Part shown: positions 11,840 through 46,504 of the stretch, piece after piece
How positions within the stretch are numbered: position 1 is the stretch's first letter
Layout of the letters: every line of letters starts with the position of its first letter
Assembly: GCA_051294905.1 (NCBI GenBank)
Contig: CM119372.1
Span: 31,436,001-31,500,000 of the forward strand
DNA length: 64,000 nt
DNA from: Botryllus schlosseri
Lineage: Eukaryota
Direction: 5' to 3'
Notes under the pieces: generated by a model
The model's input: the letters and a program-made list of their open reading frames with translations, nothing else
Database searches by the model: none
Told to the model about the DNA's origin: nothing
Made by a program: the position numbers and the translations under genes

Positions 11840-12920
11840 TTCAATGTCCGAAACATAAAAGATATGTGGAAACTAGAAATTGCCAAGTTTATTGATCAGT
11901 TCCACTGCAGTCACTGCCCTGAGAGCTTTAATGACTTTTTTACCTCAGTATCAAAAGTCGAGTCGTCCAACTACCATAAGGTTGACAAAAAATATCATCG
12001 CTCCATCAAATATGCCGGACCTGCAGTGTGGTACAGCATCACGCCAGCTATCCGACAGTCATCGAGCATGTCCGCATTCAAGTCGAAATACAAACAATTT
12101 CTACTGAACCAATACTAGTTAGCCCTCTAGTTTACCGGACCACAAGCTGACACATCGACCTCGCCTTCCGACACATCCCACCTCTTTTTGTCGCCTGTCC
12201 TTTTATATTATCTTCTTTTTTACATCGCCTAGGCCAGGTGGGTGTCTGATTTCGAAGACCAGGCTACTCCAAGTGGTTTCGACCAGGGTTGTAACCAAGT
12301 CACAAGGCTCCGAGTAACAAGTCAATCTCACTTTTATAGTTTTGACTCGAGTCAAGTCGAGTCATTTTCAATTCACCACCGAGTCAAGTCCGAGTCCAAG
12401 TCTGCAAGCATAGGGTCAAGTCCGAGTCATGGTCTTATGACTCGAATCCAAGTCCAAGACAGTCATTGCGTTGACTGCTCAGTTTCCAGTTAAATTCTTG
12501 TCTAACCCACTTTCTATAGCTCTGTTCGGTGACGGTGATATCAAACTGTTCACATTTATAATACGGTTTACTAATTTTTCTCACTTTTACCAGTTTCTGG
12601 TCGCATTGTCATACACCGTTACCAATAGACGAAATACCAAGTGAGGCTACTTTAATATTCTTCAAAATTACAATGAAATGTTGGTCTTGGCCGCCTTAGT
12701 CTCGAGTCATATGACTTGATCCGAGTCATGCACAATGACTCGATTCCAAGTCGAGTCATTTCACAGATTGACTCGAGTCAAGTCGAGTCATTTCCGTATT
12801 TTGAGAAAATGACTCGAGTCATTACAACCCTGGTTTCGACACCATTCTATCTTTCATTGTATCGCAGTCTTGTGGTGTAGCCTAATGAAATGATTAAATT
12901 GTTAGCAATAAATAGAAATG
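11840..12920 (+). mobile_element. 5'-truncated LINE (L2/CR1 group): ORF2 C-terminus and 3' UTR, interrupted by a MITE
   Basis: ORF 11864-12118 ends SIKYAGPAVWYSI...SMSAFKSKYKQFLL, typical of L2/CR1-group ORF2 tails. AATAAA near 12907. The 3' UTR recurs in reverse at 23060-23310. Confidence 0.75.
12284..12832. mobile_element. hAT (Ac-type) MITE, CAGGGTTGTAA family with GACTC/GAGTC repeats
   Basis: TIRs CAGGGTTGTAA / TTACAACCCTG, perfect TSD GTTTCGAC. Related copies at 19136, 36845 and 50445. Confidence 0.92.
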
Positions 12921-19135: not shown

Positions 19136-19629
19136 CAGGGTTGTAATGACTTGAGTCATGACTCCACTCGAGTCGCGATTCTCCGACGATTCGACTTGAC
19201 CCGAGTCCTTTCCTCAAAATACGGAAATGACTCGACTCGAGTCAATCTGTGTATTGACTCGACTCTCAGACGGCTAAGACCGACATTTCATTGTCACTTC
19301 GAAGAATAGTAAAGTAACCACATCTTGGTTATATCGCCTATTATTGGTAGGCTACTTGAAAATGCGACCAGAAACTGTTAAAAGTGTGAAAAATTGAGAC
19401 ATTTTAAATGCGAACCATCGATATCACCAACCAGAGTTAAAAAAAGACTTCAACGCGAAACTGAGCTGTCAACGGCAACGCAATGACTTGGACTCGGACT
19501 CAAGTCATAATACCATGACTCGGACTCGACTCGGTGGTGAATTAAAAACGACTCGACTTGACTCGAATCAAAACTATAAAGGTGAGAGTGACTTGTGACT
19601 CGAAGCCTTGTGACTTCGTTACAACCCTG
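19136..19629. mobile_element. hAT MITE, CAGGGTTGTAA family (inverted relative to 12284)
   Basis: TIRs present, TSD GTATTTGG/ATATTTGG. Confidence 0.88.
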
Positions 19630-24672: not shown

Positions 24673-24932
24673 TGTAGCGTACCGCTCCACGATTATCCTA
24701 ATTACCCTCGCTGATCACTGATTTGATTATGCTTCTATACTTGTTGCTGTTGCGAACCTATGTTGTGTCAGTCGCTTTTAGTCACCGTCCGAGCCAGTCG
24801 TCTTTTAGTATCCGTCGGATGAGCATCGTCATGTTTTAGTTGTTTTATTAAAAGAGCAATGCTGACTTGTCTACTTTGACTTATCGAGCCGCGGACCAAG
24901 AAGAACGCGCGCCCACGACAGAGCACGCTATA
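24673..24932 (+). repeat. 5' LTR
   Basis: TGTAGCGT...ACGCTATA, direct repeat of 32835-33094, with an ATTAAA poly(A)-like signal inside. Confidence 0.97.
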
Positions 24933-24935
24933 TTT

Positions 24936-24953
24936 TGGTGACCCCGACGTGAT
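24936..24953 (+). promoter_or_regulatory. Primer-binding site, tRNA-Trp
   Basis: TGGTGACCCCGACGTGAT is complementary to the 3' end of eukaryotic tRNA-Trp (…AUCACGUCGGGGUCACCA), 3 nt after the LTR. Confidence 0.9.
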
Positions 24954-25019
24954 ATCGCCAGCCGACTCAACCCCAACGTGCACTAGCCGACTCGCATCCC
25001 TTGCTCCGCTGTATTTGAA

Positions 25020-25930
25020 ATGTCTTCTCGACGACGACGACGACAACAATCGATAGACGATATTGCGAACTCAGCGAATTTCAATGGTACCCCGAGGATG
25101 CCGCCACCGGTGGTTAGTTTCTGGTCCCATTCGCCAGAGTCGTGGTTTGTTTCGGTGGAAGCCGGATTTGTCAGTTATGGGGTTACGGACTCTGCGTCGA
25201 AGTATTTTCACGTTCTGAGATGTCTGGACAGCAAGCAGCTCGAATCGATTCGTTTGAAGTTACCGGCCCCAGAAGACGACGACTGCTACGAAGTATTGCG
25301 AGATCTTTTGATGCGTGAGTACGCTATTCCCTTGCGAGACCGTGTTAAGGAGCTTTATAGTGATCGCTGTAGAGATTTAAAACCCTCTGAACTTCTAAAG
25401 AAATTGCGAAATGCAATGGGGGCTCTATCAAACACACCAAGTTCTGACTGTTATTTGAAAGAAACGTTCCTTCATCATTTGCCAGATCATATTGCTGGGA
25501 TATTGTCGTCACATGTAGACGATACCGTGGAACAGCTTGCCCTACGAGCTGATAGTATATACACTCGCGCTTCTCCTCGTGTGGTTTCAAATCATTACAG
25601 TTATCCTCCCGCAAATCAATTAGATGAATTGCAACGAACTGTTCAATCGATAGCTCGAGAGGTCAGGGAATTGAAGGCGATACCTTCGGCACGACATTTA
25701 CCTGCATCGGGCGGACAAAGCTCGCGCAATTTCAATCGTAGTACCGTTCCTCGCCGTGAACCCTTTAGATGTGATCGACCAGCTTTTCGGACGCAGTCAA
25801 ACCGTTCAGAGACACGTGGTGAGGTAACTCAATTTGCTCATCTGCGTGGTACGAATCAGTTGTGCTTTTATCATGATAAATTCGGTGATCGAGCTCGAAA
25901 TTGCCGTCCACCCTGTTCCTACTCCTCAAA
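25020..25930 (+). CDS. gag: Gag (true C-terminus resumes at 29343-29397 after the MITE)
   Basis: FW...PESWF..VEA.F N-terminal motif and CFYHDKFGDRARNCRPPC (Cx2Hx9Cx3C) knuckle. The ORF track read-through past 25930 is MITE sequence. Confidence 0.92.
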
Positions 25931-26886
25931 CAGGGCTGTGGAGTCGGTAAATTTTACCACCGACTCCGGCTCCGACTCCGACTCCACACATTTTCAATAT
26001 ACCGACTCCGACTCCGACTCCGACTCCTGAGTCTGTAAATGTACCGACTCCGACTCCGACTCCGACTCCTGGGCCTTTAAACGTACCGACTCCGACTCCG
26101 ACTCCCGACTCCGACTCCAGCATTATTACCAATTTACTTCGAAAATTATATGCCACATTGTCGGCTGAAAGACTATCATACAACCATTAAACATATGCAA
26201 ACATATGATCAACTGTGGCATGCTAAATTGTTTCATTGTGGCACAGCTCGAATTATCCACGATGCAATTAACATGAAATAAAGATTTGCTAAATCTCCTT
26301 CCTTATTCAAGTTTTTATAACATGGACTCTCTAATATCCTGAAATGTATGAATCATTCAAATATGGCAGATATCCAATCCTGTATAATAAAAATGTAGAT
26401 AAAAAATCCAAGTGTAGCTCTTGTGTATGACTCAGCAACTAATAAAGAATTTGAACTTACTAATTTTGTAATTGCACACTATCCTGATTACAAGCACAAA
26501 CACTCTTACTACTAATGTTAGACATTGGTCATAAATGGAATTTCGTTAAGTAGTCAAAGACCATAGCCTACGTCTAGTCTACATGTAATTAATCAAGTAT
26601 TCAAGGATTAGGACTTGCAGTCTTTCTTAATCATTTGTTCGACCCAAACAGCTCAGCTACACTACAAATATTTTTAATTTTGTCAAGTGGGAAGCATCGT
26701 TTGGTCATATTTACATCATTTTTACAATTTTACAAAACCAGCCGATGCATTTTCTCTGTCACAGTATCATGGTATAATTCCAAAAATTGCATCAATTTTG
26801 ACTGCATCGCGAAAACGCATCTTGCGATTTTCTTCCCCTCTGCAACTGAGTTGTAATTTGCAAGTAATGTCTAATTTATTCTATAT

Positions 26887-27725
26887 CAGGGGTGGGCAAC
26901 TTTTTCGGCGAAAGGGACACCTGAGATTTACGAACCATTGCGCGTGCAACTGGAATGTTGATAACCTTTTTTTAGTCGTCGATAGGAGCGAACCGCATTA
27001 GGTAACATTGCAAACAAGACTTATATTAATACGCTCTAAAATTGATAATAATATGTCATGCAACTGTGCAGTGCGCAATCAGGCCCTGGTCGCGCCAAGC
27101 GCGAAATTTTTTTGCAAGATAACGACTGAATTAGGCTATAGCTATATCAATAAATATGTCGTTAACATACATTGGGGGTCGGATCTGTATACCACTGGGC
27201 TCATTTGGCAAGGACAGGATTATTCGACGTTTAGACATAGCAAAATCGACGGTATCAGTGAACATGCCTCATCATTTTGTGCAAATGTTTTGTCGACGAT
27301 CTCGCGGCGAGTTCACAAGCGAAGCCGTATCTCCTAATTGCGAACATAGTTAGACTCAATTCTGTGAATAATATGTATTTATAATTTTCAGAAGGGGGCT
27401 CAAATACTGAATGCAAGAAATCTAGTGACAATGAATCATGCGAAGTACCGAGAAAAATTTCAAGTCAAATAAATCTGCTGTGAAATATTCTACTTCATGG
27501 TCATATAAGAAGATCTGGGATAAATGTGGCTGACCCCTGGATACGTCAATGCGTCAGAACTGTTGTTTTAGTCATCATCAAATTTCGCGGTCATGCTAAT
27601 CAAATTTTGGTTGGCCTTGCAATTGTACCTGATGTCATAAATAATTTCGAGAATTACCTCGCAGGCCACACCTAACCTTCGCGTGTGCCAAATTTGGCCT
27701 GCGTGCCACAGGCTGGCCGCACCTG
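26887..27725. mobile_element. Nested hAT MITE (family of 13646)
   Basis: Ends CAGGGGTGGGCAAC / GGCTGGCCGCACCTG, degraded TSD TTCTATAT/ATCTGTAT. Confidence 0.8.
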
Positions 27726-27742
27726 ATCTGTATGGTTTATAA

Positions 27743-29044
27743 CAGGCCTGGGCAAAGTGCGGCCCGCGGGCCACATGCGGCCCGCGAAGCTATTCTGTGC
27801 GGCCCGCGAAAGGTTGCTTGGAATTCAAAACATAATACTTGCTTGTTGAACGACTAAAACCATAGGCTGCGTATCAACTCAACGGGAAATTAGTTTACTT
27901 TGAAGCCTTCGTACCTTGCATGCGTAATCCAGATTCAAAATAAAGGCCATGTGACAAAGTATGAGTGGCAATTAAAATAACAAGAAATCACTCTTTCCAT
28001 ATAGTTTAGTTCAAACCAGCATCTTTGTGGCCATTGTCGCATTACGCATTATACGGCATGTGTTTCAAATTGTTACGCGTGCTCCGTTTCCAAATCCCTA
28101 ATTCGTAAAACAAGTCAATCAGTGCTTGCGATTACTATATGGCTGATCAACTCATCATATCTATCACCCATTAAGAAATAACGGACATGCCAAAAAAAGA
28201 AAGCTGAAAACTGAAATTCAATGAAGATTTAGACTTCAGACTTTCTAGCACTAAATAGCCTATTTGTATATTGGAGTCAGGGGTAAAGCCGTCCTTTTAG
28301 TTTTTGCCGAGCATGTCGTCGAGATTACGGATTTTACTTAATGTCGGTCTTATGACACAAATACAGAACACTCGATCAAGGGAGGGCAAATTTCAGGAAA
28401 ATGCATGCTTCGCTCAACATGAAGGCTATTAAAGTGCGGCCAAGAAAATAAGCTTTGTACTATTGCATATACATTTCAGTGCAGTGTTTCTCGAAGTGGG
28501 GTGCGTGAAAGCATCAGAAGAGGGGCGCGAAGCCGAAGTTTAGTGAAATTTTTTTTCGCGCTCGGCGCGATCTACCCCAGCAGCTTACAGTTATTGCTCT
28601 GTGTATTGTTCGACTTTGATATGAATTCACTCATCGACAACCATATTCTCCCACGCCATCCAACTATCCGCTGGTATTGCTAGCATTCTAGCTGCACTTT
28701 TTACTATTTTGTGACATCATGATAAGGGGCGCGCGAAAGTTTTCACTATCATAAAGTGAGGCGTACCTAAAGAAGTTTGAGAACCACTGTTCTAGAGTCT
28801 GAATATATGAACGTGGATAGCGGTTTGAAGAGAGTTAAAATGCATCATGTCTAGCATTGTTTCGAATCAGGACAGCAAATACATATTTTTTAATTAACCG
28901 TCAATTTCTCATTACCTGACGTGAGCACATTCGCTGATCAGCATTTATTAACGATGTTATTTAGAAATAAAATTGAAATACGGCCCGCCAACGTATTTTC
29001 CACTTCTCATTAGGCCCGCGGAGGAAAATAATTGCCCATCCCTG
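27743..29044. mobile_element. Nested hAT (Buster-type) MITE
   Basis: Ends CAGGCCTGGGCAA / TTGCCCATCCCTG, TSD GTTTATAA, GGCCCGC repeats. Confidence 0.88.
28482..28789. mobile_element. Innermost nested hAT MITE
   Basis: Ends CAGTGTTTCTCGAA / TTTGAGAACCACTG. TSD degraded. Confidence 0.7.
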
Positions 29045-29348
29045 GTTTATAATAACAGTGATTGGTGGTACATAAAAACTCTATTGAAAATTATTTGAAA
29101 GCAAATGTTTTCATGATAGAGAAGTTGGAGTCGGAGTCGGAGTCGAAGTCATAGTCATTCTCACAAACTCCGACTCCGACTCCAGTCAGTATTTTCCCAC
29201 CGACTCCGACTCCGACTCCGACTCCAGCTATTATAGTTTTCGTGACTCCGACTCCGACTCCGACTCCATCAAGTGAAAATCACCCCGACTCCGACTCCGA
29301 CTCCACCGACTCCGACTCCGACTCCACAGCCCTGTCCTCAAATCGCCC

Positions 29349-32300
29349 TTTTTTAGGCGGAGGCCTCGTGAGGGATCGCAACAATTTTCAACAGTGAACT
29401 CCGAACGTGAAAACCCTTTATTGCATGTGCGAGATTCGATTTCAGGGCAGATTTTCCTCGTCGATACAGGAGCATCCGTTTCTGTTTTGCCGACTTCGAG
29501 TAACGTTTTAAAAAGTAAACCAGGACCAAATCTGTACGCTACAAATGGATCAAAAATTGCGACGTTTGGAACGAGATATTTACGGATCGAGCTCTCCGAT
29601 AGACACAAGTATGGATTTCGATTCTATATTGCCGATACACACATTGCCATATTGGGGGCTGATTTTATTGAGCGATTTTCTCTCGTCGTTGATTTGAGGA
29701 ACAATTGTCTGATTGATACGGTTTCAGGAGGTTTCATTCCTGGCTGGAAGTGTAATCCAGTAGTTCGCGGTTTGAACTTTATAGCGCCTGATCACAATAC
29801 GCCATATGTAGATCTTTTGTCGAGATTCAACGACATTACCGTTCCACGGAATGCAGCAGTACGAGCTAATCACGGTACTGTACATCGTATTATTACTAAA
29901 GGATGTCCCACTCGTTGTCGCTGTCGCCCATTGCCGCCCCATTTGAAACAAAAGGTGAAGAATCGATTGCAAGAGATGTTGAAGTCCGGTGTAATCATTC
30001 GCTCAAAATCGCCTTTCGCCTCTCCCATCACTGTCGTACCGAAGGGGATAGATGATATTAGAATCTGTGTCGACTATAGGAAATTAAACAATCAGACGGT
30101 CAAGGATCGCTGGCCTGTCCCATTTCTGCGTGATTTTACCAATGAACTGTCGAACTGTAATGTTTTTAGCAAAGTTGACTTAGCGAAGGCGTACCATCAA
30201 ATCCCTCTTCATCCGGACGATCAAGAGAAGGCTGCTTTTATTTGTCCCGAAGGACTATTCCAACCAACGACGATGATGTTTGGCTTGACCAACGCTTGTA
30301 GTACTTTTAGCCGTTTTATATCCGAAGAAACCGAAGGACTGGACAATATTTTTGCGGTTTTAGACGACATTTTAATTGCGACTCGGACTGAAGAAGAGCA
30401 CATGGCAACATTGTCGAAATTGTTTTCAAGGTTTTGTAAGTTCGGACTGGTCATAAATGTTGATAAGTGCAGTTTCGGTAAGGAAGAAATCGAATTTTTA
30501 GGTCACCTTGTTAATGCAAGGGGAATTAGTCCCTTGCCGTCTAAGGTTGAAGTAATCTCTAACTATCCTCGTCCCGAAAATGTAAAACAACTACGTTCAT
30601 TCCTTGGACTAGTCTGCTATTACCACCGTTTTGTCAAAAAGTGTGCCGAGATTTTGAAGCCACTGTATGACGTGGCCAATGCAGCATCGAATAAACGTGA
30701 TCGTGTCAAATGGACAGATAGTGCTAACACAGCTTTCGAACGCATCAAGACCGAACTGTCCGATAATATCATATTATCCCACCCGATTCACGATGCTGAA
30801 CTGTCACTCGTGGTTGACGCTAGTCAAGTCGGAATTGGAGCTGTTTTGCAACAGAAACGTGATGATTCGTGGTTACCCTTAGCATTCTTCTCGAAAACCT
30901 TGAACCCGACACAGCGCAAGTACTCCGCATTTGATCGCGAGCTTTTAGCGGCTTATTCAGCAATAAAGCATTTTCATGTCCAGCTAAAGGGTAGGAAATT
31001 TCAACTGATTACCGATAATGACGGCCTTGTAAAATCGTTAAGGAATCCAACCGACAGACTTCTGGATCGTCAAGCAAGACAGTTGGAATTCATCACGGAA
31101 TATACCGACGACGTTAGACACATCAAAGGGACTCTGAACACGGCTGCGGATACTCTCTCCAGGCTCGAGGTGAACGCGATTTTTCCGAACACTGTTCCCA
31201 TCACAGCCGAAGCATTACTAGAAGCTCAGAAAGGCGACGATGAGCTCAAAGAACTCCTCGCTAACGCTGGTGACCATTCGTTGGATCTCGCGGAAGTACA
31301 TTTCGAAGAGTTGAAGGATCCTATCATCTTCGACAAATCGTTACCTGGTAGAGAACGTCCCTACGTTCCTGCGGCGCTTCGAGAGACTGTAATGCACAGT
31401 GTGCATGATATTTCACACCCCGGTATACGCGCGACCACTAAATTAATAGCTGAACGTTATGTATGGCCCGGCATGAAACGACATGTGAACGATTTCGTCC
31501 GTCATTGTCAGCAGTGTCAACGATCGAAGATTCATAGGCATAATCGAACTGCAATTAGCAATCTTCCCGTCCCTTCCGAACGCTTTCACACGGTTAACGT
31601 GGACATTTTATCACTCCCTAATAGTTGTGGCTACTCGTATATTTTGATGTGTGTTGATCGCTATACTCGCTGGCCTGTATGTGTTCCAATGATGGACATT
31701 CGTGCCCAAACTGTTATTGATGCGTTTAGTTTTGGCTGGGTGTCGAATTTCAGCTCACCCCGTAAAGTCATAACCGACCGAGGAAGCCAGTTTACCTCGC
31801 TTGAATGGACTCGGTATATGCAATTCTTGGGTATTTTTCATATCACAACTTTGGCGTATAAGCCGGAGCAAAATTCTCTTGTCGAACGCTATAACAGAAC
31901 TTTGAAAGCCTCCCTCCGCGCATTAGAAAGTCCTCATAATTGGTATCATCACTTAGGCTTAATTGTTTTAGGGCTGAGATGTTCTGTCAAGGAAGATCTC
32001 GGTTATTCACCAGCAGAGCTTGTGTATGGCACTTCCCTTCGACTACCCGGTCAATTAGTCAATCCTTCTTCCAGTGGTAATAACGCTAATGATTTCAACT
32101 ACGTTGGTGAATTGAAACGCTTTTTCTCAGCCGTGGGTGAGATGCCGACTAAGTCTCATTCGAATCAAAAATCTTATGTCCCAAACGATTTGAATAATTG
32201 CACGCACGTTTTCTTGCGGATAGATGGTCATCGTAGATCACTCGATCCGGTTTATTCTGGTCCACACCAAGTTTTAAAACGCACTCATAAATGTTTCACA

Positions 32301-32504
32301 ATTCAAACGAATAAGGGTCCGTATGACGCCTCAACCGACAGGCTTATACCTGGCAGACTTCCCATCGAGCGTCTCGAAGAATTGACGCCACCGCAAGCTA
32401 ATATTTCGCGAACGAACTCTGTGTCGGCCAGCGGCCGTAATATTCGTACTCCACATCACTTGAATGATTTTGTGTTGTCACCAGTATTTAAAATGGATAT
32501 TTAG
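29349..32504 (+). CDS. pol: Pol polyprotein (protease, RT, RNase H, integrase), probably expressed by -1 frameshift
   Basis: LVDTGAS protease; RICVDYRKLN, KVDLAKAYHQ and VLDD in RT; VDAS/DRELLA in RNase H; HHCC and D,D35E in integrase; GPH in the GPY/F position. Uninterrupted frame, open back to the slippery site TTTTTTA at 29349. Confidence 0.95.
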   Translation, partial: FFRRRPREGSQQFSTVNSERENPLLHVRDSISGQIFLVDTGASVSVLPTSSNVLKSKPGPNLYATNGSKIATFGTRYLRIELSDRHKYGFRFYIADTHIAILGADFIERFSLVVDLRNNCLIDTVSGGFIPGWKCNPVVRGLNFIAPDHNTPYVDLLSRFNDITVPRNAAVRANHGTVHRIITKGCPTRCRCRPLPPHLKQKVKNRLQEMLKSGVIIRSKSPFASPITVVPKGIDDIRICVDYRKLNNQTVKDRWPVPFLRDFTNELSNCNVFSKVDLAKAYHQIPLHPDDQEKAAFICPEGLFQPTTMMFGLTNACSTFSRFISEETEGLDNIFAVLDDILIATRTEEEHMATLSKLFSRFCKFGLVINVDKCSFGKEEIEFLGHLVNARGISPLPSKVEVISNYPRPENVKQLRSFLGLVCYYHRFVKKCAEILKPLYDVANAASNKRDRVKWTDSANTAFERIKTELSDNIILSHPIHDAELSLVVDASQVGIGAVLQQKRDDSWLPLAFFSKTLNPTQRKYSAFDRELLAAYSAIKHFHVQLKGRKFQLITDNDGLVKSLRNPTDRLLDRQARQLEFITEYTDDVRHIKGTLNTAADTLSRLEVNAIFPNTVPITAEALLEAQKGDDELKELLANAGDHSLDLAEVHFEELKDPIIFDKSLPGRERPYVPAALRETVMHSVHDISHPGIRATTKLIAERYVWPGMKRHVNDFVRHCQQCQRSKIHRHNRTAISNLPVPSERFHTVNVDILSLPNSCGYSYILMCVDRYTRWPVCVPMMDIRAQTVIDAFSFGWVSNFSSPRKVITDRGSQFTSLEWTRYMQFLGIFHITTLAYKPEQNSLVERYNRTLKASLRALESPHNWYHHLGLIVLGLRCSVKEDLGYSPAELVYGTSLRLPGQLVNPSSSGNNANDFNYVGELKRFFSAVGEMPTKSHSNQKSYVPNDLNNCTHVFLRIDGHRRSLDPVYSGPHQVLKRTHKCFTIQTNKGPYDASTDRLIPGRLPIERLEELTPPQANISRTNSVSASGRNIRTPHHLNDFVLSPVFKMDI

Positions 32505-32834
32505 TGTGTTCTCATTTACTTTTCCGCCATCACTTGTATTTTTTTCGCAACAGGCATTACATCTCCTCTAATGTTCTGTAAATCGTGTCTTGAGCCTTTC
32601 ACATTGTAAACTGCATATTATCGCTAAACGAATCATTTTGTCGTTATAGCTTTACCATACCACACCCACGTCGCTATCGTATTCGTTATACCATTAGAAT
32701 CGTACTCGTATTTCGAAACCTAATCTGTAATCATTGCCATGTCATGCTGGTAGCGTCATTCATTCGTAGTTAAATCGTTGACTGATGTAGTGTCCATATT
32801 ATATCCTGAAGCTTTTACCAACCAGGGGGGCCCT

Positions 32835-33094
32835 TGTAGCGTACCGCTCCACGATTATCCTAATTACCCTCGCTGATCACTGATTTGATTATGCTTCTAT
32901 ACTTGTTGCTGTTGCGAACCTATGTTGTGTCAGTCGCTTTTAGTCACCGTCCGAGCCAGTCGTCTTTTAGTATCCGTCGGATGAGCATCGTCATGTTTTA
33001 GTTGTTTTATTAAAAGAGCAATGCTGACTTGTCTACTTTGACTTATCGAGCCGCGGACCAAGAAGAACGCGCGCCCACGACAGAGCACGCTATA
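32835..33094 (+). repeat. 3' LTR
   Basis: Identical by eye to 24673-24932, followed by TSD ACTC. Confidence 0.97.
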
Positions 33095-35722
33095 ACTCTG
33101 TGTACCGCGGATATCAGAAAATATTTTACAAATTTAATTGTTTCCAGTTACCAAGACTAAAGACGAAACAACAATTGCGTTTGCTGCTTAACAACCGGTA
33201 CAATACTTTATTTTCGGAATCTGCGACATCGAATTGAAACATACGCACATCACGCAGTACGAAAATATCACTTGGGAACTCGAGGGTATCATTCAATATG
33301 TGTTAAACTCTTTTCACACTATCTGTCGAACGCGTGAAATGTAAAACATTACGAGGTTACGCTCTAAGATTTTGATCATCAAGAAAGTAAATAGAGGTAT
33401 GCTTGTTGGATACGTCCTATTCAACCGGTCTTGATTGGTACAAAACTCATAACAATAATAAAATTGAAGTATGTGCTACACTGAATTCTACAAAAATGTG
33501 TTTGTATTGCTGTTCGTAGTAGTGATATCGATTTGAACCTCCGGAATAGTTGTCATCATCTAACCAAACTACTAAAAGTCGTTGTCAATCTGTATGATGT
33601 TCACTGATTGCATACTAGAACTATTTGTGCAACACACACGACCAGAGAAATTGGAAATTTTCCCATTGTCATTCATCAAAGTAAATGTCGTCACAATACT
33701 CAGTCACTAAAAAACCATGTACTTGTATGTGATTGAATCATCGGTAATTAACTAGCTAAATCAAACCACTAAGAAATTCCACTCACTCATTGGGTATTAA
33801 ACAGCGTCGCTTAATCGGTGTGAGTCGTTTTTTTCTAAATACAAATCATATCTGTCTATCAGAAAACAATTTTCACTCACTTGGGTAATGAAACCAGTGT
33901 GCGATATTAATACAAGATATTTCCGTCACACAAATAATAATCAACTTCACTCGATATTCCCATGCTACGAAACTGTACAATGGTTTCATGTTTTTGTATG
34001 ACATGGAATTAATACCGATCGAAGTAACCGTATTAGAAATGACTTTCAAACAAAGACACTATGGGCCGTATGCACCAACATGTTTTGAACCCAAACTGGA
34101 GCTCAAACAGGGGTTCAGGAGATATTTCCAAAGCACCAACAATGAAACGTCAATGATCTAGCGTTCACTCGCGCCGAATTTGATCGAAAAGTAAACAACC
34201 GCGGGAGGTTGTTTAAAATGTAGTTCAGTGCTTTGGCATGGTTATCGCTGATTGTGGTCTCCTGTTTCTCGCGACTGGTTGACTGTAAATTGGTTCATGT
34301 TGAAGACGTAGGTGCACAATTTGCTATCTTTCCGTAAATTAGCAGACTTTCTAAGCTGTAGGAATAGATTTTAGATGTTTCCGAACCCAGTTTCACCAAT
34401 GTGAGGCCGAATGGCTTACAGTTTACTGTTAGTTGATCGGTATACCGGTATTAGCGAGTATAGTGGTGAGCCAGGAAATCCATATGACTGCCTCAAGGTA
34501 CCGGTAATGAAGATGCAATATTCTTGTCTTGCGCCTTGTAGGTTTGAATGAAAGACCTTCGGGTCAAAAATGAATGAAAATTATGACCAAGTCTGACGTC
34601 TGTATACAGTGTACAGTTTTTGAAGTACCCTGCGGGGTGCAATTGATGAGGCGTGTTCCCTATAAAGTTTGATATATTTCACCATCATTGAAGCTATGCC
34701 AGTACAGCCGATATTACAGTAGATTGTCCTCATAGCCCAAATGACCGGGTTGGAATCCCGGTACGTTTAGCGTAATATATTTGGTGTACCACGACGGTTT
34801 TCAGCGTCACACCTGTGTATATTAGTAGAATCTTTGATGTGCACGAGACACCGATTCCATATTGGCGAAATGGAAAGCACGTAGCTGCCGGCTGCCAATG
34901 TCACGGCATGTCATGAATTGCTGAATCCTCTTTTATGTAACTGTTTCAAGTTTAGTATGAAGTATGAGTACGGAATTTAGTAAAATGGACCCAAAACAAA
35001 ACTGAAAGTTGATTTGCTTGCCAATGATGTAGGTTGTCGATTGAGTTATGGGAGCAGAAGCTGTATGGATTTGTACCAGACGTCAGGAATCGTGGTCCTG
35101 TGATTTGCGCTCGCGGTCGACCGTAGATAGGTTGGTTTTGGAGCCGCATGTCTTGCAAATCTCTATATTATAGTAATTTTACAGGTTTTAGGTTACATGA
35201 GTGAAATATATACACGTCCTAACAACGATAAAGCGTTTCACTAATCTGGAGATTCTCGGATTAGGTCACAGTCAAAGAGAACCGGCATTATCAAGTGATG
35301 TCGGCCAAGAGACCATCCTCAAAAATGTGCATAATATGCAATAATATTATGTTGGAAGAAGACACATATACATATACAAAAGAATCACCATGAAACTGAA
35401 GGTTATCGATTCCGATTTTGATGTACTTCGCAAAGAAGAGGGGACTAACTCTGGCTCGTATATCAATCGCTAGAGATTTTGGCTGAATATCATTACAAAG
35501 TTATCTGTCTGAGTCAAATTCCCCAAAAAGTCAATGACTGCAGGAGTACTCTAGTGGTAGGACCGAGAAATCAAAAAACCAGGGCCCCGTGGATATACTC
35601 AGCTATCGCAGCTCCCGCAGCTATCGCAGCTATCACTTGTGGATATACTCAGCTATCACAGCTATCGCAGCTATCACCAAAAATCGCAGACATACAGGTC
35701 ATTTAAAGGTCACGTATCGTTT

Positions 35723-36823
35723 AGGGCGCAGCTATCAGCTCCGCAGCACGTCTGGGTTCAAATAGGGCGCAGCTATCAGCTTCGGAGCACGTCCGGGATG
35801 AAATAGTGCGCAGCTATCAGCTCTGGAGCACATCTGGGTTCAAATAGTGCGCAGCTATCAGCTTCGGAGCACGTCCGAGATGAAATAGTGCGCCGCTATC
35901 AGCTCTGGAGCACATCTGGGTTCAAATAGTGCGCAGCTATCAGCTCCGGAGCACATGTGGACTCGAATTATGAGCAACTATCGGCTCCAGAGGTAGTCCG
36001 GGTTCAAATAGTGCGCAGCTATCAGTTTCGGAGCAAGTCTGAGTTGAAATAGTGCGCAGCTATCAGCTCCGGAGCACATGTGGACTCGAATTATGCGCAG
36101 CTATCGGCTCCAGAGGTAGTCCGGGTTGAAATAGTGCGCAGCTATCAGATCCGGAGTACGTCCGTGATGAAATAGTGCGCAGCTATCAGCTTTGGAGCAC
36201 GCCTGGGTTCAAATAGTGCGCAGCTATCAGCTCCGGAGCACGCCCAGATGCAAATAGTGCGCAGCTATCAGCTCGGGAGCAAGTCTGAGTTGAAATAGTG
36301 CGCAGCTATCGGCTCCAGAGGTAGTCCGGGTTGAAATAGTGCGCAGCTATCAGCTCAGGAGCACGTCCGGGGTGAAATAGTGCGCAGCTATCAGCTCAGG
36401 AGCACGTCTGGGTTGAAATAGTACGCAGCTATCAGCTCCAGAGGTAGTCTGGGTTCAAATAGTGCGCAGCTATCAGCTCCGGAGCACGCCCGGATGCAAA
36501 TAGTCCGCAGCTATCAGCTCAAAAGCACGTCTGGGTTCAAATAGTGCGCAGCTATCAGCTTCGGAGCACGTCCGATATGAAATAGTGCGCAGCTATCAGC
36601 TCAGGAGGACGTCTGGGTTGAAATAGTGCGCAGCTATCAGCTTCGGAGCACGCCCGGATGCAAATAGTGCGCAGCTATCAGCTCAAAAGCACGTCTGGGT
36701 TGAAATAGTGCGCAGCTATCAGCTCCGGAGCACGTCCGGGTTGAAATAGTGCGCAGCTATCAGCTCTGGAGCAAGTCCGGGTGCAAATAGTGCGCAGATA
36801 TCAGCTCCAGAGCACGTCTGGGC
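35723..36823 (+). repeat. Left 41-bp tandem array (~27 units)
   Basis: Core AAATAGTGCGCAGCTATCAGC plus a ~20-bp variable part. Period 41 (35771 to 35812). Truncated by a MITE end at 36824. Confidence 0.95.
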
Positions 36824-36844
36824 CAGTGTTGGGATGACTCGAGT

Positions 36845-37397
36845 CAGGGTTGTAACAAGGCTCCGAGTCAGAAGTCACTCTCAGTTTTATAGTTTTAAAT
36901 CGAGTCCAGTGAAGTCATTTTCAATTCGCCACCGAGTCAAGTCCGAGTCCAAGTCATCGAGCAGAGGTTCGAGTCCGAGTCATGGTATTATGACTCGAGT
37001 CCGAGTCCAAGTTATCCTGTAGATGTGTTGACTGCTCGTTTTCCATTTAAAGTCTTGTTAAACCCACTTTCTATAACTCGCTTTGGTGATATCGAATGGT
37101 TCGCATTCATAATATAGGCTACTAATTTTCCTCACTTTTAAATGTTTCTGGTCGCATTTTCAAGTATCAGTAACAATAGGGTGGTTAATTTACAATTCTT
37201 CGAAATTTCAATGAAATGTCGGTCTTGGCCGTCTAAGTCTCGAGTCATAATGACTTGGTTCGAGTCATGTGCAATTACACATATAGACTCGAGTTGAGTC
37301 GAGTCATTTCCGTATTTTGAGAAAATGACTTGAGTCAAGTCGAGTCATCAGAAAATTGTGACTTGAGTCGATTCATGATCGATTGATTACAACCCTG
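36845..37397. mobile_element. hAT MITE, CAGGGTTGTAA family, nested in the end of a CAGTGTTGGGATGACTCGAGTC element starting at 36824
   Basis: TIRs present, TSD ACTCGAGT/ACTCTAGT. The host terminus is identical to that at 59675. Confidence 0.85.
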
Positions 37398-37529
37398 ACT
37401 CTAGTCATGACTTGGATGTTGAATTTGGTTCAATTCCAACCAGTAGCCGCATTGCTACAGGAGAAGAAAGATTCAATTTATTTAAAAAAAATAAATAACA
37501 AAAAATTTGGTTCAATTCCAAACAGTGGA

Positions 37530-37673
37530 AGCGGAGTTATTGCCGTCGAAAAATTTGGATTTGAATAAAATAGTATTTATGATGGGCACCACTATAATAA
37601 ATAATTAAAGAATTAATCACGGTAAATACTATTTTATTCATAATCCAAATTTTTCGACGGCAATAACTCCGCT
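37530..37673. repeat. ~50-bp near-perfect inverted repeat with a ~43-bp spacer
   Basis: AGCGGAGTTATTGCCGTCGAAAAATTTGGATT...ATAGTATTTA versus TAAATACTAT...AATCCAAATTTTTCGACGGCAATAACTCCGCT. Confidence 0.9.
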
Positions 37674-38234
37674 GTAGTCATTATATAAAACGTGAGACTT
37701 TCGTTTCATCCAATCGCGGATATATTTCATGAAAATATGTTTGAATCAGGCTTGTTGGCACGTACCCTTATGCATGGAATGTGCAGCGGATTATTTACTC
37801 ATAGTAGTTTGATATAGTTCCCAGGCGAGTAGGTCTCCGAGCTATATTTTATTCATGAGATACCAATCAAAGTAACACACCCTTCTTCTGGTGCACCAGT
37901 ATCGAAATATTGTCTTTGGGCCATGCATTATATTAATTAGATACGTATAAGGCCCGTGTAGTGAGTATATAGGCCTCAATATACTATACCTGCAGTCGCA
38001 CACGTCCGATATCAGATCAGTGAATATCTATGATAGGCAGAGCCGATAGTAGGGAAGGCCTACACTACATCCACGGAATCGCACAGGTGTTAGTCAGCAT
38101 AATTATTCGTGAGCAGAGCTTTTAATACAAAGTAACGAAATTTCTTTTGATCCCGTGTAGATGTCAGAATATCTGTTCACCGCATGTACACTGAAAATCA
38201 GGAAGATAGTCCTTGCATGCAATGCAATGAATGA

Positions 38235-41200
38235 ATTCGAGTCCACAGGTGCTCCGTAGCTGATAGCTGCGCACTATTTGCATCCGGACTTGCTCCGGAG
38301 CTGATAGCTGCGCACTATTTCAACTCAGACTTGCTCCGGAGCTGATAGCTGCGCACTATTTGAACCCAGACTACCTCTGGAGCTGATAGCTGCGCACTAT
38401 TTCAACCCGGACGTGCTCCTGAGCAGATAGCTGCGCACTATTTCAACTCAGACTTGCTCCGGAACTGATAGCTGCGCACTATTTGAACCCAGACGTGCTT
38501 TTGAGCTGATAGCTGCGCACTATTTCAACTCAGACTTGCTCCGGAACTGATAGCTGCGCACTATTTCAACTCAGACTTGCTCCGGAACTGATAGCTGCGC
38601 ACTATTTCAACTCAGACTTGCTCCGGAACTGATAGCTGCGCACTATTTGAACCCAGACGTGCTTTTGAGCTGATAGCTGCGCACTATTTCAACCCGGACT
38701 ACCTCTGGAGCCGATAGTTGCGCAAAATTCGAGTCCACATGTGCTCCGGAGCTGATAGCTGCGCACTATTTGAACCCAGACTACCTCTGGAGCTGATAGC
38801 TGCGCACTATTTCAACCCGGACGTGCTCCTGAGCTGATAGCTGCGCACTATTTCAACTCAGACTTGCTCCGGAACTGATAGCTGCGCACTATTTGAACCC
38901 AGACTACCTCTGGAGCTGATAGCTGCGCACTATTTCAACCCGGACGTGCTCCTGAGCTGATAGCTGCGCACTCTTTCAACTCAGACTTGCTCCGGAACTG
39001 ATAGCTGCGCACTATTTGAACCCAGACGTGCTTTTGAGCTGATAGCTGCGCACTATTTCAACTCAGACTTGCTCCGGAACTGATAGCTGCGCACTATTTG
39101 AACTCGGACTACCTCTGGAGCCGATAGTTGCGCAAAATTCGAGTCCACATGTGCTCCGGAGCTGATAGCTGCGCACTATTTGCATCCGGACTTGCTCCGG
39201 AGCTGATAGCTGCGCACTATTTGAACCCGGACGTGCTTTTGAGCTGATAGCTGCGCACTATTTCAACTCAGACTTGCTCCGGAACTGATAGCTGCGCACT
39301 ATTTGAACCCAGACGTGCTTTTGAGCTGATAGCTGCGCACTATTTCAACCCGGACTACCTCTGGAGCCGATAGTTGCGCAAAATTCGAGTCCACATGTGC
39401 TCCGGAGCTGATAGCTGCGCACTATTTGAACCCAGACTACCTCTGGAGCTGATAGCTGCGCACTATTTCAACCCGGACGTGCTCCTGAGCTGATAGCTGC
39501 GCACTATTTCAACTCAGACTTGCTCCGGAACTGATAGCTGCGCACTATTTGAACCCAGACTACCTCTGGAACTGATAGCTGCGCACTATTTCAACCCGGA
39601 CGTGCTCCTGAGCTGATAGCTGCGCACTCTTTCAACTCAGACTTGCTCCGGAACTGATAGCTGCGCACTATTTGAACCCAGACGTGCTTTTGAGCTGATA
39701 GCTGCGCACTATTTCAACTCAGACTTGCTCCGGAACTGATAGCTGCGCACTATTTCAACTCAGACTTGCTCCGGAACTGATAGCTGCGCACTATTTGAAC
39801 CCAGACGTGCTTTTGAGCTGATAGCTGCGCACTATTTGAACCCAGACTACCTCTGGAGCTGATAGCTGCGCACTATTTCAACCCGGACGTGCTCCTGAGC
39901 TGATAGCTGCGCACTATTTCAACTCAGACTTGCTCCGGAACTGATAGCTGCGCACTATTTGAACCCAGACTACCTCTGGAGCTGATAGCTGCGCACTATT
40001 TCAACCCGGACGTGCTCCTGAGCTGATAGCTGCGCACTATTTCAACTCAGACTTGCTCCGGAACTGATAGCTGCGCACTATTTGAACTCGGACTACCTCT
40101 GGAGCCGATAGTTGCGCAAAATTCGAGTCCACATGTGCTCCGGAGCTGATAGCTGCGCACTATTTGCATCCGGACTTGCTCCGGAGCTGATAGCTGCGCA
40201 CTATTTCAACTCAGACTTGCTCCGGAGCTGATAGCTGCGCACTATTTGAACCCAGACTACCTCTGGAGCTGATAGCTGCGCACTATTTCAACCCGGACGT
40301 GCTCCTGAGCTGATAGCTGCGCACTATTTCAACTCAGACTTGCTCCGGAACTGATAGCTGCGCACTATTTGAACCCAGACTACCTCTGGAGCTGATAGCT
40401 GCGCACTATTTCAACCCGGACGTGCTCCTGAGCTGATAGCTGCGCACTATTTCAACTCAGACTTGCTCCGGAACTGATAGCTGCGCACTATTTGAACTTG
40501 GACTACCTCTGGAGCCGATAGTTGCGCAAAATTCGAGTCCACATGTGCTCCGGAGCTGATAGCTGCGCACTATTTGCATCCGGACTTGCTCCGGAGCTGA
40601 TAGCTGCGCACTATTTCAACTCAGACTTGCTCCGGAGCTGATAGCTGCGCACTATTTGAACCCAGACTACCTCTGGAGCTGATAGCTGCGCACTATTTCA
40701 ACCCGGACGTGCTCCTGAGCTGATAGCTGCGCACTATTTCAACTCAGACTTGCTCCGGAACTGATAGCTGCGCACTATTTCAACTCAGACTTGCTCCGGA
40801 ACTGATAGCTGCGCACTATTTCAACTCAGACTTGCTCCGGAACTGATAGCTGCGCACTATTTCAACTCAGACTTTCTCCGGAACTGATAGCTGCGCACTA
40901 TTTCAACTCAGACTTGCTCCGGAACTGATAGCTGCGCACTATTTCAACTCAGACTTGCTCCGGAACTGATAGCTGCGCACTATTTGAACCCAGACTACCT
41001 CTGGAACTGATAGCTGCGCACTATTTCAACCCGGACGTGCTCCTGAGCTGATAGCTGCGCACTATTTCAACTCAGACTTGCTCCGGAGCTGATAGCTGCG
41101 CACTATTTGAACCCAGACTACCTCTGGAGCTGATAGCTGCGCACTATTTCAACCCGGACGTGCTCCTGAGCTGATAGCTGCGCACTATTTCAACTCAGAC

Positions 41201-42824
41201 TTGCTCCGGAACTGATAGCTGCGCACTATTTCAACTCAGACTTGCTCCGGAACTGATAGCTGCGCACTATTTCAACTCAGACTTGCTCCGGAACTGATAG
41301 CTGCGCACTATTTGAACCCAGACGTGCTTTTGAGCTGATAGCTGCGCACTATTTGAACCCAGACTACCTCTGGAGCTGATAGCTGCGCACTATTTCAACC
41401 CGGACGTGCTCCTGAGCTGATAGCTGCGCACTATTTCAACTCAGACTTGCTCCGGAACTGATAGCTGCGCACTATTTGAACCCAGACTACCTCTGGAGCT
41501 GATAGCTGCGCACTATTTCAACCCGGACGTGCTCCTGAGCTGATAGCTGCGCACTATTTCAACTCAGACTTGCTCCGGAACTGATAGCTGCGCACTATTT
41601 CAACTCAGACTTGCTCCGGAACTGATAGCTGCGCACTATTTCAACTCAGACTTTCTCCGGAACTGATAGCTGCGCACTATTTGAACCCAGACGTGCTTTT
41701 GAGCTGATAACTGCGCACTATTTCAACCCGGACTACCTCTGGAGCCGATAGCTGCGCATAATTCGAGTCCACATGTGCTCCTGAGCTGATAGCTGCGCAC
41801 TATTTCAACTCAGACTTGCTCCGGAACTGATAGCTGCGCACTATTTGAACCCGGACTACCTCTGGAGCCGATGGTTGCGCAAAATTCGAGTCCACATGTG
41901 CTCCGGAGCTGATAGCTGCGCACTATTTGCATCCGGACTTGCTCCGGAGCTGATAGCTGTCCACTATTTCAACTCAGACTTGCTCCGGAACTGATAGCTG
42001 CGCACTATTTGAACCCAGACGTGCTTTTGAGCTGATAGCTGCGCACTATTTGCATCTAGGCGTGCCCCGGAGCTGATAGCTGCGCACTATTTGAACCCAG
42101 ATGTGCTCCAGAGCTGATAGCTGCGCACTATTTCATCCCGGACGTGCTCCGAAGCTGATAGCTGCGCACTATTTGAACCCAGACGTGCTTTTGAGCTGAT
42201 AGCTGCGCACTATTTCAACTCAGACTTGCTCCGGAACTGATAGCTGCGCACTATTTCAACTCAGACTTGCTCCGGAACTGATAGCTGCGCACTATTTGAA
42301 CCCAGACGTGCTTTTGAGCTGATAACTGCGCACTATTTAAACCCGGACTACCTCTGGAGCCGATAGCTGCGCATAATTCGAGTCCACATGTGCTCCTGAG
42401 CTGATAGCTGCGCACTATTTCAACTCAGACTTGCTCCGGAACTGATAGCTGCGCACTATTTGAACCCGGACTACCTCTGGAGCCGATGGTTGCGCAAAAT
42501 TCGAGTCCACATGTGCTCCGGAGCTGATAGCTGCGCACTATTTGCATCCGGACTTACTCCGGAGCTGATAGCTGTCCACTATTTCAACTCAGACTTGCTC
42601 CGGAACTGATAGCTGCGCACTATTTGAACCCAGACGTGCTTTTGAGCTGATAGCTGCGCACTATTTGCATCTGGGCGTGCCCCGGAGCTGATAGCTGCGC
42701 ACTATTTGAACCCAGATGTGCTCCAGAGCTGATAGCTGCGCACTATTTCATCCCGGACGTGCTCCGAAGCTGATAGCTGCGCACTATTTGAACCCAGACG
42801 TGCTCCGGAGCTGATAGCTGCGCC
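38235..42824 (-). repeat. Right 41-bp tandem array (~112 units), inverted relative to the left array
   Basis: Core GCTGATAGCTGCGCACTATTT, period 41 (38298 to 38339), higher-order blocks. Confidence 0.97.
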
Positions 42825-42974
42825 TAAACGATACGTGACCTTTAAATGACCTGTATGTCTGCGATTTTTGGTGATAGCTGCGATAGCTGTGATAGCTGAG
42901 TATATCCACAAGTGATAGCTGCGATAGCTGCGGGAGCTGCGATAGCTGCGATAGCTGAGTATATCCACGGGGCC

Positions 42975-43600
42975 TTACAAAGTTATCTGTCTGAGTCAAA
43001 TTCCCCAAAAAGTCAATGACTGCAGGAGTACTCTAGTGGTAGGACCGAGAAATCAAAAAACCAGTCATGGAAATGTGCATAATATGACTGCTTTGGAATT
43101 GAATCATGTTGGGGGAAGGTAGCCTACATCAACATGGACCACATTCATCTCGATTTCTACAATATCGTCAACATGTAATTGAAGGTCATTCATTCTGATA
43201 TTGATTTACTGCTCATGCTCAAAGAGGTGACAAACTGCCCTGGGTCGAACGTCAATTGCTAGAGATTTGGGCTGAATATCATTACAAAGTTTGCTGTCTG
43301 TGCCAAATTCCCCAAAAAGTCAATGACTACAAGAATACTCGAGTGGTAGGACCGTGAAATCAAGAAACCAGTCATGGAAATGTGCAAATATGACCGATTT
43401 GGAATTGTACCATGTTGGGGGAATGTTGCCTACATCAACATGGACCACATTCATCTCAATTTCTACAATAGCATCAACATGCAACTGAAGGTTGTCCATT
43501 CTGATATTGATGTAGCCTACTGTGCCTGTGTGATGATGGGACTAACTACCTTGGTCCGAAAGTCAATTGCTTTATATTTTGACTGATCGTCATTCCGAAG
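42975..43600. repeat. Diverged ~307-bp tandem repeat inside the Harbinger element (first copy ~35320-35582)
   Basis: GGCTGAATATCATTACAAAGTT at 35481 and 43270; CCAGTCATGGAAATGTGCA at 43061 and 43368. Confidence 0.85.
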
Positions 43601-46504
43601 TTTGATGCTTGAGTCAACCCGCCAAAAATATGAATATACCACCAATCGAAATAAAGTGAATGATTAGATCGACTCTGAAAAATGCTTCGGTTGGCACTAT
43701 GATAAGGGATGTACAAATCTTACATATTCTATAACAAATCATCTTTTATCTCTAGCAAGGTGCTTACAATAATGCTTGAAAGTATGAATAGCATGGTATT
43801 TTATCTTGTCTAGAGCAGAAAATGTTAGGTGTGCACACTGTGCAGTACTCATGATTGAATGAAAAGGTTTTTACTTGGATGAGTTTGTATTTGTAGACTA
43901 TTTTCATTTCATGTGTTTGGCTATCATGATAATTTATTGTGTGATGATGAAGACCAGACCCTGGAGATTCCTATTTACTTGACAAAAATGCAAATTGAAG
44001 GATTTCAGTTCTTTTCAAACTGTTCAAGTATACAACATGGTCATGAACAATGAAATAAGTCTGTCGATTTGTGTTACTTTATCAGTTGAGAATGTTGAAT
44101 ATATGCTGTGCAGATATGGTAGTTGGATGGGATTGTCGGGCTATTGAGAGAACACAGTAATGGTGGAATCTCGGCAAGTTTTGCGCAATTGATTAGGGGA
44201 GCACTGATGATTCTCAAGGTGACAGTAAGGTACTCCCAAGAAATTAAGGAAGCACAGGACACTCATTCCGTTCGGGTTAGATTCGAATGTGGGTAAAACA
44301 ATGAAGGTGATATTCCACACTGTGAACACACAGAACAAGTTGTGCGGGGTGAGGACAGTGGGTGTAAAGAGCCATTGGCCCTCGATTTTTACAGACAGTG
44401 TGGTGTCAAATATATATTCATAAGCCAGGATATTGTAAATTTTCGCCCTGTCCTTCAATTTACCTCCTGGCAGGGCATCGCCAGTAAAGCCATGACTAAA
44501 TTTTGGAACTTTAAAAGCATGATGGCAAAGCTAGCAATGGTATTTGATTCGAAAATGGTTACAGAAATATAGCCGGAGTTTTGTGAATGTGCTCAGCTGC
44601 TCATCATTGAAATGGACATCGCGCTAGCGACCGCTGAGTTCCACAAAAACCTTGTTTTGTTTACCATTCGGTCGGCCTTGAGTAGCTTTTCAGGGGGCAA
44701 ATTGAGCATCTATTTACTGAACGCTAGCTCGTCTCAATTATCATCAGTTCGTCTGAACGGCGTTTAAATATCGATGGTGCATCGCGAAAAATTTTGAACT
44801 GATGTTTCGTTTGAGTTATGTTCGAGCGAACAGACGATCAGACTTGAACGTGTTCAATGTTGGTGCATACGGCCCTATATGTGGTTTACATTCTCATCGA
44901 TCCTATTGTGATCAATGTAATATACTTCATGTGATCTAGATTCATTTCGATATTGTTAAACATTCAACCTCGACGGATACGAATTGTCACACACTCAAGT
45001 AATATCATACCAAATAGTTATTTACAACAACCAAGACATAGAAAATTTGTTTTGGCCGTTTCGATTTTATTACTGGAGGTACTCATCACTTCGCCTAATA
45101 CAATCTAGATTTAAACTCCGTCTATAGTTTTGCTGGATACGAATTATGTTAGTGTAAACAATTTTCACTATCTTGGGTTATGAACTCAGTGTGTTAGCGG
45201 TCATTCAATATTTTGTTGTATCAACTAGTTACTTTGTAGGATACGAATGATCATCCCTACAACTCTTACAAAAGTACGAAGGATATTTACATCACGCAAA
45301 GTAATCAACTTTACTCGATATCCTCACACTACGAAACTAAATGTTTGGTTATACTCTACAAACTGTTTCTGATGTCACAAGAACTTTTTACACGAATGGT
45401 CACGCATCTAAATATTCAAATAATCCGACACACCTTACAGAAATATCATAGTTCTTGTAACAAAGTTGTATAAGCATAATGTTTATCGTAAGTCCTATAC
45501 AGTCATGATATCCGCCCGAGTTTGACTTTTAGAAAACATTATACCGACATCGATATATCTTTCAAAAACAAAAACCCTGTTCACTGCTCGAGAGGTCTAC
45601 CAACGTCATCGCAGTAATACATTTACTTCCACAAAAGAGTATGTATTCGACTTACGTTCCACAAATCTAACGCGCAAAACAATTTACTTTGCTAATGAAA
45701 AGTGCCGAGTCATCATATGGTTGTCCTCACAACAATACAACTAAAACATACTATCATACAAAATGGCCGTTATAGTTTGCTCACCAACGGTACATCGTAC
45801 AAGTAACAAGTCTCGAGAATCGATTTATTGAATAACGTGAAAGTGTTTTTTCCAGTGTCAAGTCGTTATGTTGATGAAAGCGTATATTGTCATATCATAC
45901 GATCAATTTGCATACGTTGGTCACAAACTGCCACTACTCTAAATAATTCTTTTTCACTCAAACACAAAAGTATACTTGTCACCATTCGTTTTCATCAAGC
46001 ACAAGTTCAAGAAACTTACTTACTACGACAAGGTTGTTATTTTTATGTTGTGTAAATAGGTAATAATTAATTTCAGTAACACTATATCAACATCATCGAG
46101 TTGTGCGAATAGTTTTACATGTGGTCTTGTGGTTTTAATCGAAGCACACTGCGTGGTCTAATGTAGAGTCATCTCTATTGTACAGCAACTCGGTAATCGA
46201 AATGCATGCATTAACATTTAAACAACGATCTTGGTTCGTCACGCGAAAAATATCTTTACTGTCGCGACACTCTGATACTCTGCACAAGATGTGTAAATCC
46301 TTTTCACACTCATAGCAATACAATAACGGGATACCAACGTCAATCGACAACGTTTAACAACATCACTAACACTGAACAAACGATACCTACCCAAGTAAAA
46401 TTACCATTTTCACCTGGAGGTCAGCAAAATACCATTGACCTTTGGAGATTTATCGTTTCCTCGGAGTAACAATGCATTTTCACTTGGTGATCAATCGTTT
46501 ATCC

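Follow-up and report, generated by a model that had tools for sequence, protein, structure and literature searches.

A foldback element between two identical 90-bp host copies

The analysed window is a 64,000-bp stretch of the Botryllus schlosseri genome (assembly GCA_051294905.1, contig CM119372.1, positions 31,436,001 to 31,500,000 of the forward strand; coordinates below are those of the window, which contains no N). Positions 35583-42974 are occupied by a 7,392-bp non-coding element with inverted arms, which, judged from its sequence, is a non-autonomous foldback DNA transposon. Direct comparison within the window revealed that the 90 bp preceding this element (35493-35582) and the 90 bp following it (42975-43064) are identical at 90/90 positions. 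The left copy abuts the tip of one terminal inverted repeat (TIR) at 35583 and the right copy abuts the tip of the other at 42974, and the identity stops precisely at both borders, where the adjoining bases differ before and after. The exact duplication flush with both TIRs that the initial annotation had described was therefore borne out, together with the CAG before the left tip and the TTA after the right one. The TIR tip sequence itself is exact at 35583 (+) and 42974 (-), and its sole additional match in the window has three mismatches (0.12 matches expected by chance; 0 of 100 shuffles reached three matches). Of the nine listed pairs of exact direct repeats of at least 30 bp outside the arrays in the window, the 90-bp pair is the second longest, exceeded by a 260-bp pair of long terminal repeats (LTRs). 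The features of the locus, including a miniature inverted-repeat transposable element (MITE) with its own target-site duplication (TSD), are as follows.

35385..35582 (+), first part of an older host repeat of 306-307-bp period, split by the element
35493..35582 (+), left 90-bp host copy, which begins TTA and ends CAG
35583..35725 (+), non-array part of the left TIR, with tip GGCCCC and short 9-bp repeats
35722..36822 (+), left 41-bp array, 26.9 copies (TRF), the last unit truncated at the core
36823..38248 (no strand), non-coding core of older repeats
36845..37397 (no strand), hAT-type MITE nested in the core, with an 8-bp TSD (7/8 match)
37530..37673 (no strand), small palindrome (144 bp) within the core
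38249..42823 (-), right 41-bp array, inverted relative to the left one
42824..42974 (-), non-array part of the right TIR
42975..43064 (+), right 90-bp host copy
43065..43617 (+), remainder of the older host repeat, which directly follows 35582 in the empty site

The host DNA around the element is itself periodic, with a unit of 306-307 bp, and the next host unit matches the 90-mer at only 80/90 positions as against 90/90 between the two copies. Host periodicity was therefore ruled out as the source of the duplication, in agreement with the earlier remark that more than this periodicity was involved, and the pair appears to be a young duplication within an old host repeat. No ordinary TSD of 3-12 bp was found at the true TIR tips, and displacing them by as many as 6 bases yielded only AAA or matches built of TIR letters. 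Microhomology was found at neither the left nor the right junction, which rules out template switching through microhomology.

The non-array parts of the TIRs show no substitution over 142 aligned bases, the only differences being a 9-bp unit and a single base. The arrays, which together make up 5.7 kb of the element, comprise 26 whole units on the left, 24 of them distinct, and 111 whole units on the right, of which 27 are distinct and which form higher-order repeats; only three unit types are common to both arrays exactly. The arms are thus highly unequal, the right one having been expanded and homogenised independently. Between them, the 1.4-kb core begins with 24 bases identical to 59675-59698, and its nested MITE is 69-76% similar to copies at 12284-12832 and 19136-19629, which have 8-bp TSDs of their own (8/8 and 7/8). 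The hAT label of this MITE follows from the 8-bp TSD and the CA tip, as given in Table 1 of PMC4423477. The composition of the core, a patchwork of older repeats, and its contact with a cut array unit give it the look of host DNA that was captured or has long been carried along. Pfam returned no match for the 13 open reading frames scanned out of 42 listed over the core, Rfam returned none over 33000-45000, and neither the TIR tip nor the array unit was found at any locus in metagenome contigs, viral contigs or prokaryote genomes.

The empty site in other sequenced runs

The site was compared with sequenced runs over 34900-35720, using assembled contigs and not reads. Four of the 24 matching runs were compared: X1, X15 and X16 cover the site, whereas X21 (raw reads, 12% of them read) gave no records over it. 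The listed data behind this comparison comprise 24 of 1,323 pieces, 18 of 96 loose ends and 40 of 62 variant rows. Since the best of the 24 runs shares only 0.53 of its words with the window, about the share left by 2.5% divergence, the source sample is probably not among the runs listed.

All three covering runs hold an empty site, in which contigs pass from 35582 straight into 43065 onward. This joint was present, among the listed loose ends, in one contig of X1, four of X15 and three of X16, and in X1 and X15 these loose ends reach far enough to be told apart from the next host unit, agreeing with 43065 onward instead. Two of the X16 contigs, with depths of 10.7 and 8.5, both continue from 35582 to 43065; they carry three and two differences over 35516-35582, where the next host unit has six. 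As these depths together match the flank depth of 21.4, we read X16 as holding two empty haplotypes. Additionally, an X15 contig spans 35408-35510 without any difference, and neither border thus bears a footprint. The empty site therefore has a single 90-mer, and the duplication arrived with the element, which bears out the link to the insertion drawn earlier; the insertion is polymorphic, and the duplication is real in the assembly. If the region were multi-copy, the empty sites would be paralogues and not alleles, and the conclusion would be unaffected. A pre-existing 90-bp tandem that received a TSD-less insertion at its junction was also considered and is ruled out, as the empty site runs on to 43065; no joint going back from 35582 to 35493 occurs among the listed joints.

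Identical copies without a footprint, as observed, are what would be predicted by a single insertion in which the ends attached to opposite target strands with 90 bases between them, either at separate times or because the target was looped, and in which strand displacement filled both gaps, leaving a one-off giant TSD. A concerted transpososome fixes the stagger, which counts against such an event. Bacterial elements with DDE transposases, IS1549 and IS1634, generate repeats 8-514 bp in length according to the summary in PMC2266710, whereas a literature search, mostly of titles and listings and with few subscription papers, returned no eukaryotic cut-and-paste case of long TSDs. The initial annotation had included uncoupled strand transfer leading to a giant TSD among its proposals; this would give the same sequence and persists as the main rival in our analysis, which we consider unlikely and do not prefer.

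Identical copies would likewise result if, after a normal insertion, one end had been cut and gap repair had re-copied the far flank and re-joined the tip. Excision sites in rice commonly contain 1-123 bp of filler DNA (portions of PMC4423477), but the fillers described there were found where the element had been lost. In the present case both tips are complete to the last base, microhomology is lacking at the two junctions, and this repair route is accordingly a decidedly unlikely source of the second copy.

One chromosome of origin

Both copies of the 90-mer carry a G at 35543/43025, a position at which A accounts for all of the depth of X15 and X16 and for 97% of that of X1; about 4% G remains in X1 after subtraction of the next host unit, a depth that is not an allele frequency. 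The window flank differs from an X16 contig at 11/442 sites (34900-35341). At that divergence the probability of 90 identical bases between haplotypes is 0.10, compared with 0.40 at 1% and 0.03 at 4% divergence. The 90-mer is moreover polymorphic among the empty haplotypes, with 35546 at intermediate depth in X15 and X16, and TIR variants occur in the runs, whereas the two ends of the element are free of substitutions over their 142 aligned bases, as would fit two ends of one copy. The identity of the two 90-mer copies, down to a base seldom met in the runs, is moderate evidence that they derive from one chromatid lineage, evidence that is weaker if the haplotype is common in the source population. 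It is possible that the source belongs to a distinct population or that its haplotype is a rare one. Most of the 11 flank differences are near-fixed in X15 and common in X1. X15 and X16 also share a 126-bp bubble of two variants at 35312-35437, which may reflect a two-subfamily repeat.

A single lineage takes weight from every history that draws the two copies from different chromosomes, namely a crossover between independent insertions on homologues, the insertion of a hybrid element into an unrelated homologue, and a haplotype switch in the assembly. The first two follow known routes (described in sections of PMC2775673), and both junction trinucleotides fall within the TWA/CWG set, a coincidence of 0.4% by background for a set that the initial annotation had picked with the two trinucleotides already in view. 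Nevertheless, the copies are identical and carry the rare base in a 90-mer that varies among the runs, and the chimeric TIRs of Galileo are about 6% divergent in the portion of PMC2775673 that treats them, against zero substitutions here. An inter-homologue origin is hence the least probable of the histories that we weighed, although a haplotype common in the source population would weaken this case. The proposal in the initial annotation that two independent insertions had recombined is likewise not supported, given the shared rare base and the absence of TIR substitutions over 142 bases.

The haplotype switch would be an assembly chimera, made from an insertion at CAG on one haplotype and another at TTA on its counterpart, with a change of haplotype inside the element. 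The evidence is indeed an assembly without a spanning read, the 5.7 kb of arrays lie within the element, and the runs probably leave out the source sample, the best of them sharing only that 0.53 of words. Such a chimera would nevertheless require two insertions less than 90 bp apart on haplotypes identical across the 90-mer, rare base included, in a window without N where four other insertions have ordinary 4- or 8-bp TSDs. We regard it as very unlikely.

Superfamily and target site

The tip GGCCCC fits the Harbinger consensus GG(G/C)CC listed in Table 1 of PMC4423477, a weak match to a five-base motif; the same table gives GAG for Mutator and CA for hAT, and the element tip matches neither. 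According to the relevant passages of PMC4482050, PIF/Harbinger families use TWA and NuwaI families CWG, one family normally keeping to one type. Of the reading as Harbinger targets put forward in the initial annotation, the trinucleotides CAG and TTA are present, but the assignment is only a lead: another flank of the TIR ends in ACG, and the TWA/CWG reading is therefore unproven. This ACG flank is one of two other single-contig junctions, the second being aligned through CAG, and the base beside the tip is G in six of the listed junction contigs and another base in five. Ahead of the tip, the three G-ending junctions (single-contig or window) are A/C-rich; few as they are, they may reflect a longer target preference. 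The earlier estimate that two insertions lay about 87 bp apart is not supported either, as this spacing presumes a 3-bp TSD, and none is measurable here.

When scored against the Harbinger3_DR target consensus, the CAG site agrees at 9/15 positions, a score reached by 9.9% of the 1,410 CWG sites in the window and which therefore gives no support, and the TTA site at 4/15. The TIRs, with 142 bp plus more than 1 kb of inverted array, exceed the norm of PHIS elements (mostly <60 bp, range 5-1042, which is not a strict criterion in the part of PMC4482050 that gives it), and long TIRs with a minisatellite are as in the foldbacks of Mutator-like elements (MULE) and Rehavkus. On these sequence features, the element seems somewhat likely to belong to PHIS, and we do not file it there.

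Other junctions of the TIR family

If the contigs were built from 31-letter words, as the index of the runs suggests, a perfect duplication longer than 30 bp should interrupt them some 30 letters past the tip; duplications that are old and diverged would go unnoticed in this break test, and the flanks of junction contigs are reported as medians. Both listed TIR junctions of X16 have an unbroken flank of 255 letters each. The X15 junction rows have median flanks of 152 letters (four contigs), 58 letters (three contigs, including six TIR letters) and 32 letters (two contigs). Indirectly, then, most of the listed TIR junctions are without a long perfect duplication. Multi-contig loose-end consensus sequences, with an agreement of 0.58-0.68, were left out for target letters, and summed TIR depth was left out as a measure of copy number.

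These flanks bear on whether the duplication could be a trait of the whole family, whose transposase would join the two ends independently and leave long, variable duplications at many insertions, as an animal counterpart of IS1549/IS1634. Such behaviour has its bacterial precedent in the account of PMC2266710, no copy with an ordinary TSD has been demonstrated, and the X15 row with flanks of about 32 letters would suit it. In opposition, two of the two listed X16 junction contigs and at least four of the nine listed X15 ones have unbroken flanks well above 31 letters by their medians. The mostly long unbroken flanks of the other junctions indirectly make a family-wide giant TSD very unlikely, and the possible family-wide mechanism raised in the initial annotation is not supported.

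Proposed origin of the duplication

Tentatively, we favor an ordinary insertion followed by a re-insertion between sister chromatids, either local or through hybrid ends, a course that would have produced the duplication once. That a real one-off event lies behind it, the one-off readings being combined, is much more firmly held and appears quite probable. Most likely it was a single transposase accident; the class of event is already known, and the present case would be a natural example and not a new mode of integration. On this view the element would first have landed by an ordinary insertion on one border of the 90-mer. Once the locus had replicated, a hybrid pair made up of the left end from one sister copy and the right end from the other may have been cut or, alternatively, a local hop on one sister may have been followed by a sister exchange inside the element. 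A borrowed transposase would have joined one of the ends again, now to the sister chromatid at a distance of 80-odd bases, while the vacated original site closed precisely, the product being flank-90mer-element-90mer-flank and the reciprocal deletion chromatid not being inherited. The 90 bp would then correspond to the hop distance plus one ordinary TSD, and not to a TSD. It can be weakly inferred that the original end, typical of the family, is the one at CAG, the one at TTA having been joined later.

In support of this sister-chromatid origin, the endpoints of the duplication coincide with intact element termini, as in alternative transposition, of which duplications ending at element termini are known products (parts of PMC3744419 and PMC2775673). 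Joining by a transposase is suggested by the position of both junctions on intact tips without microhomology. The single 90-mer of the empty site, the signs of one chromosome of origin and the long flanks at other TIR junctions also speak for it. Local hopping is described as common among cut-and-paste elements (a section of PMC3016246), and PIF/Harbinger sites as generally closing precisely (a section of PMC4561436). The two mechanisms first proposed for this locus come close to our two leading readings, except that an exchange would have to involve sister copies of one element and need not lie in the arrays.

Several observations weigh against a sister-chromatid origin. It needs two events and a precise excision in an element whose superfamily is not established, and for mPing the rate of precise excision varies from 83% to 1 in about 70 in the data given by PMC4423477. 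A single uncoupled insertion yields the same sequence with one event, and sequence alone cannot separate that giant TSD from the sister-chromatid reading. The progenitor allele was not seen: none of the three listed joints skips to 35583, a comparison that covers the left side only and runs in which the window haplotype is rare; a progenitor at the CAG site would not show in the stretch compared (34900-35720). The junctions differ (CAG versus TAA in TIR orientation), and target choice must therefore be lax. Lastly, the two-copy arrangement rests on the assembly, without a read spanning the element, and the X15 row of two contigs with a median of 32 fits heterozygous insertions or long duplications.

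Neighbouring retrotransposon

The 260-bp LTR pair that is the longest exact repeat of the window belongs to a very young gypsy-type LTR retrotransposon at 24673-33094, whose LTRs are 100% identical and which has a 4-bp TSD. Its pol lies in a 1,075-aa stop-to-stop frame (reverse transcriptase, RNase H and integrase) at 29277-32504, and a gag-like frame of 347 aa with DUF7041 lies at 24987-26030. About 3.2 kb separate the two frames, with CCGACT-rich repeats at both ends of the gap.

Relation to known systems and significance

Among known systems, P-element hybrid element insertion resembles the present case in that the element is kept together with a duplication starting exactly at its end. In the work associated with Gray in 1996 and Preston in 1996, its target is reportedly usually the homologue. 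Here the copies look like one haplotype, the allele is natural, the tip is not P-like and the reciprocal deletion was not seen. In the descriptions given in portions of PMC2775673 and PMC3744419, such insertions treat ends from two copies, sister or homologous, as those of a single element. Sister-chromatid and reversed-ends transposition of Ac/Ds share with our case direct duplications that end at termini, a sister target and an unmatched TSD (from the part of PMC3744419 on these events); in reversed-ends products, however, two nearby elements take part and each repeat begins with an element, whereas here one element lies between short copies.

IS1549 and IS1634 share a long exact repeat flush with intact TIR ends, 90 bp falling within their 8-514 bp range (same summary, PMC2266710). 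They are prokaryotic, encode a transposase and show the repeat at all copies, whereas the present element is eukaryotic and non-coding and the duplication probably concerns one copy. Their repeats, from Vilei 1999 and Plikaytis 1998 as summarised in PMC2266710, had no proposed mechanism as of that paper (2008). PHIS elements (PIF/Harbinger, NuwaI) have in common with the element the tip GG(G/C)CC, CAG and TTA junctions and a clean empty site (as far as covered in PMC4482050 and PMC4423477), and differ from it in its long TIRs with a 41-bp array, lack of a measurable 3-bp TSD, ACG junction at another copy and lack of a transposase or Myb/SANT gene. Galileo (P superfamily) and Rehavkus/MULE also have long, internally repetitive, non-coding inverted arms (excerpts of PMC2775673 and PMC6446971); their TSDs are of 7 or 9 bp, with 8-11 bp of variable sequence given for MULE/Rehavkus, whereas any short TSD here is hidden by the 90-bp duplication.

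As a one-off, the locus would provide a clean natural case of a flanking duplication made by a transposon, a class known mostly from crosses in fly and maize. If long duplications were instead a trait of the family, it would become possible to study in a eukaryote how target duplications of variable length arise from a DDE transposase, and TSD length could not serve to classify this foldback family. For annotation, the absence of a short TSD, or the presence of a giant one, need not mean a new superfamily.

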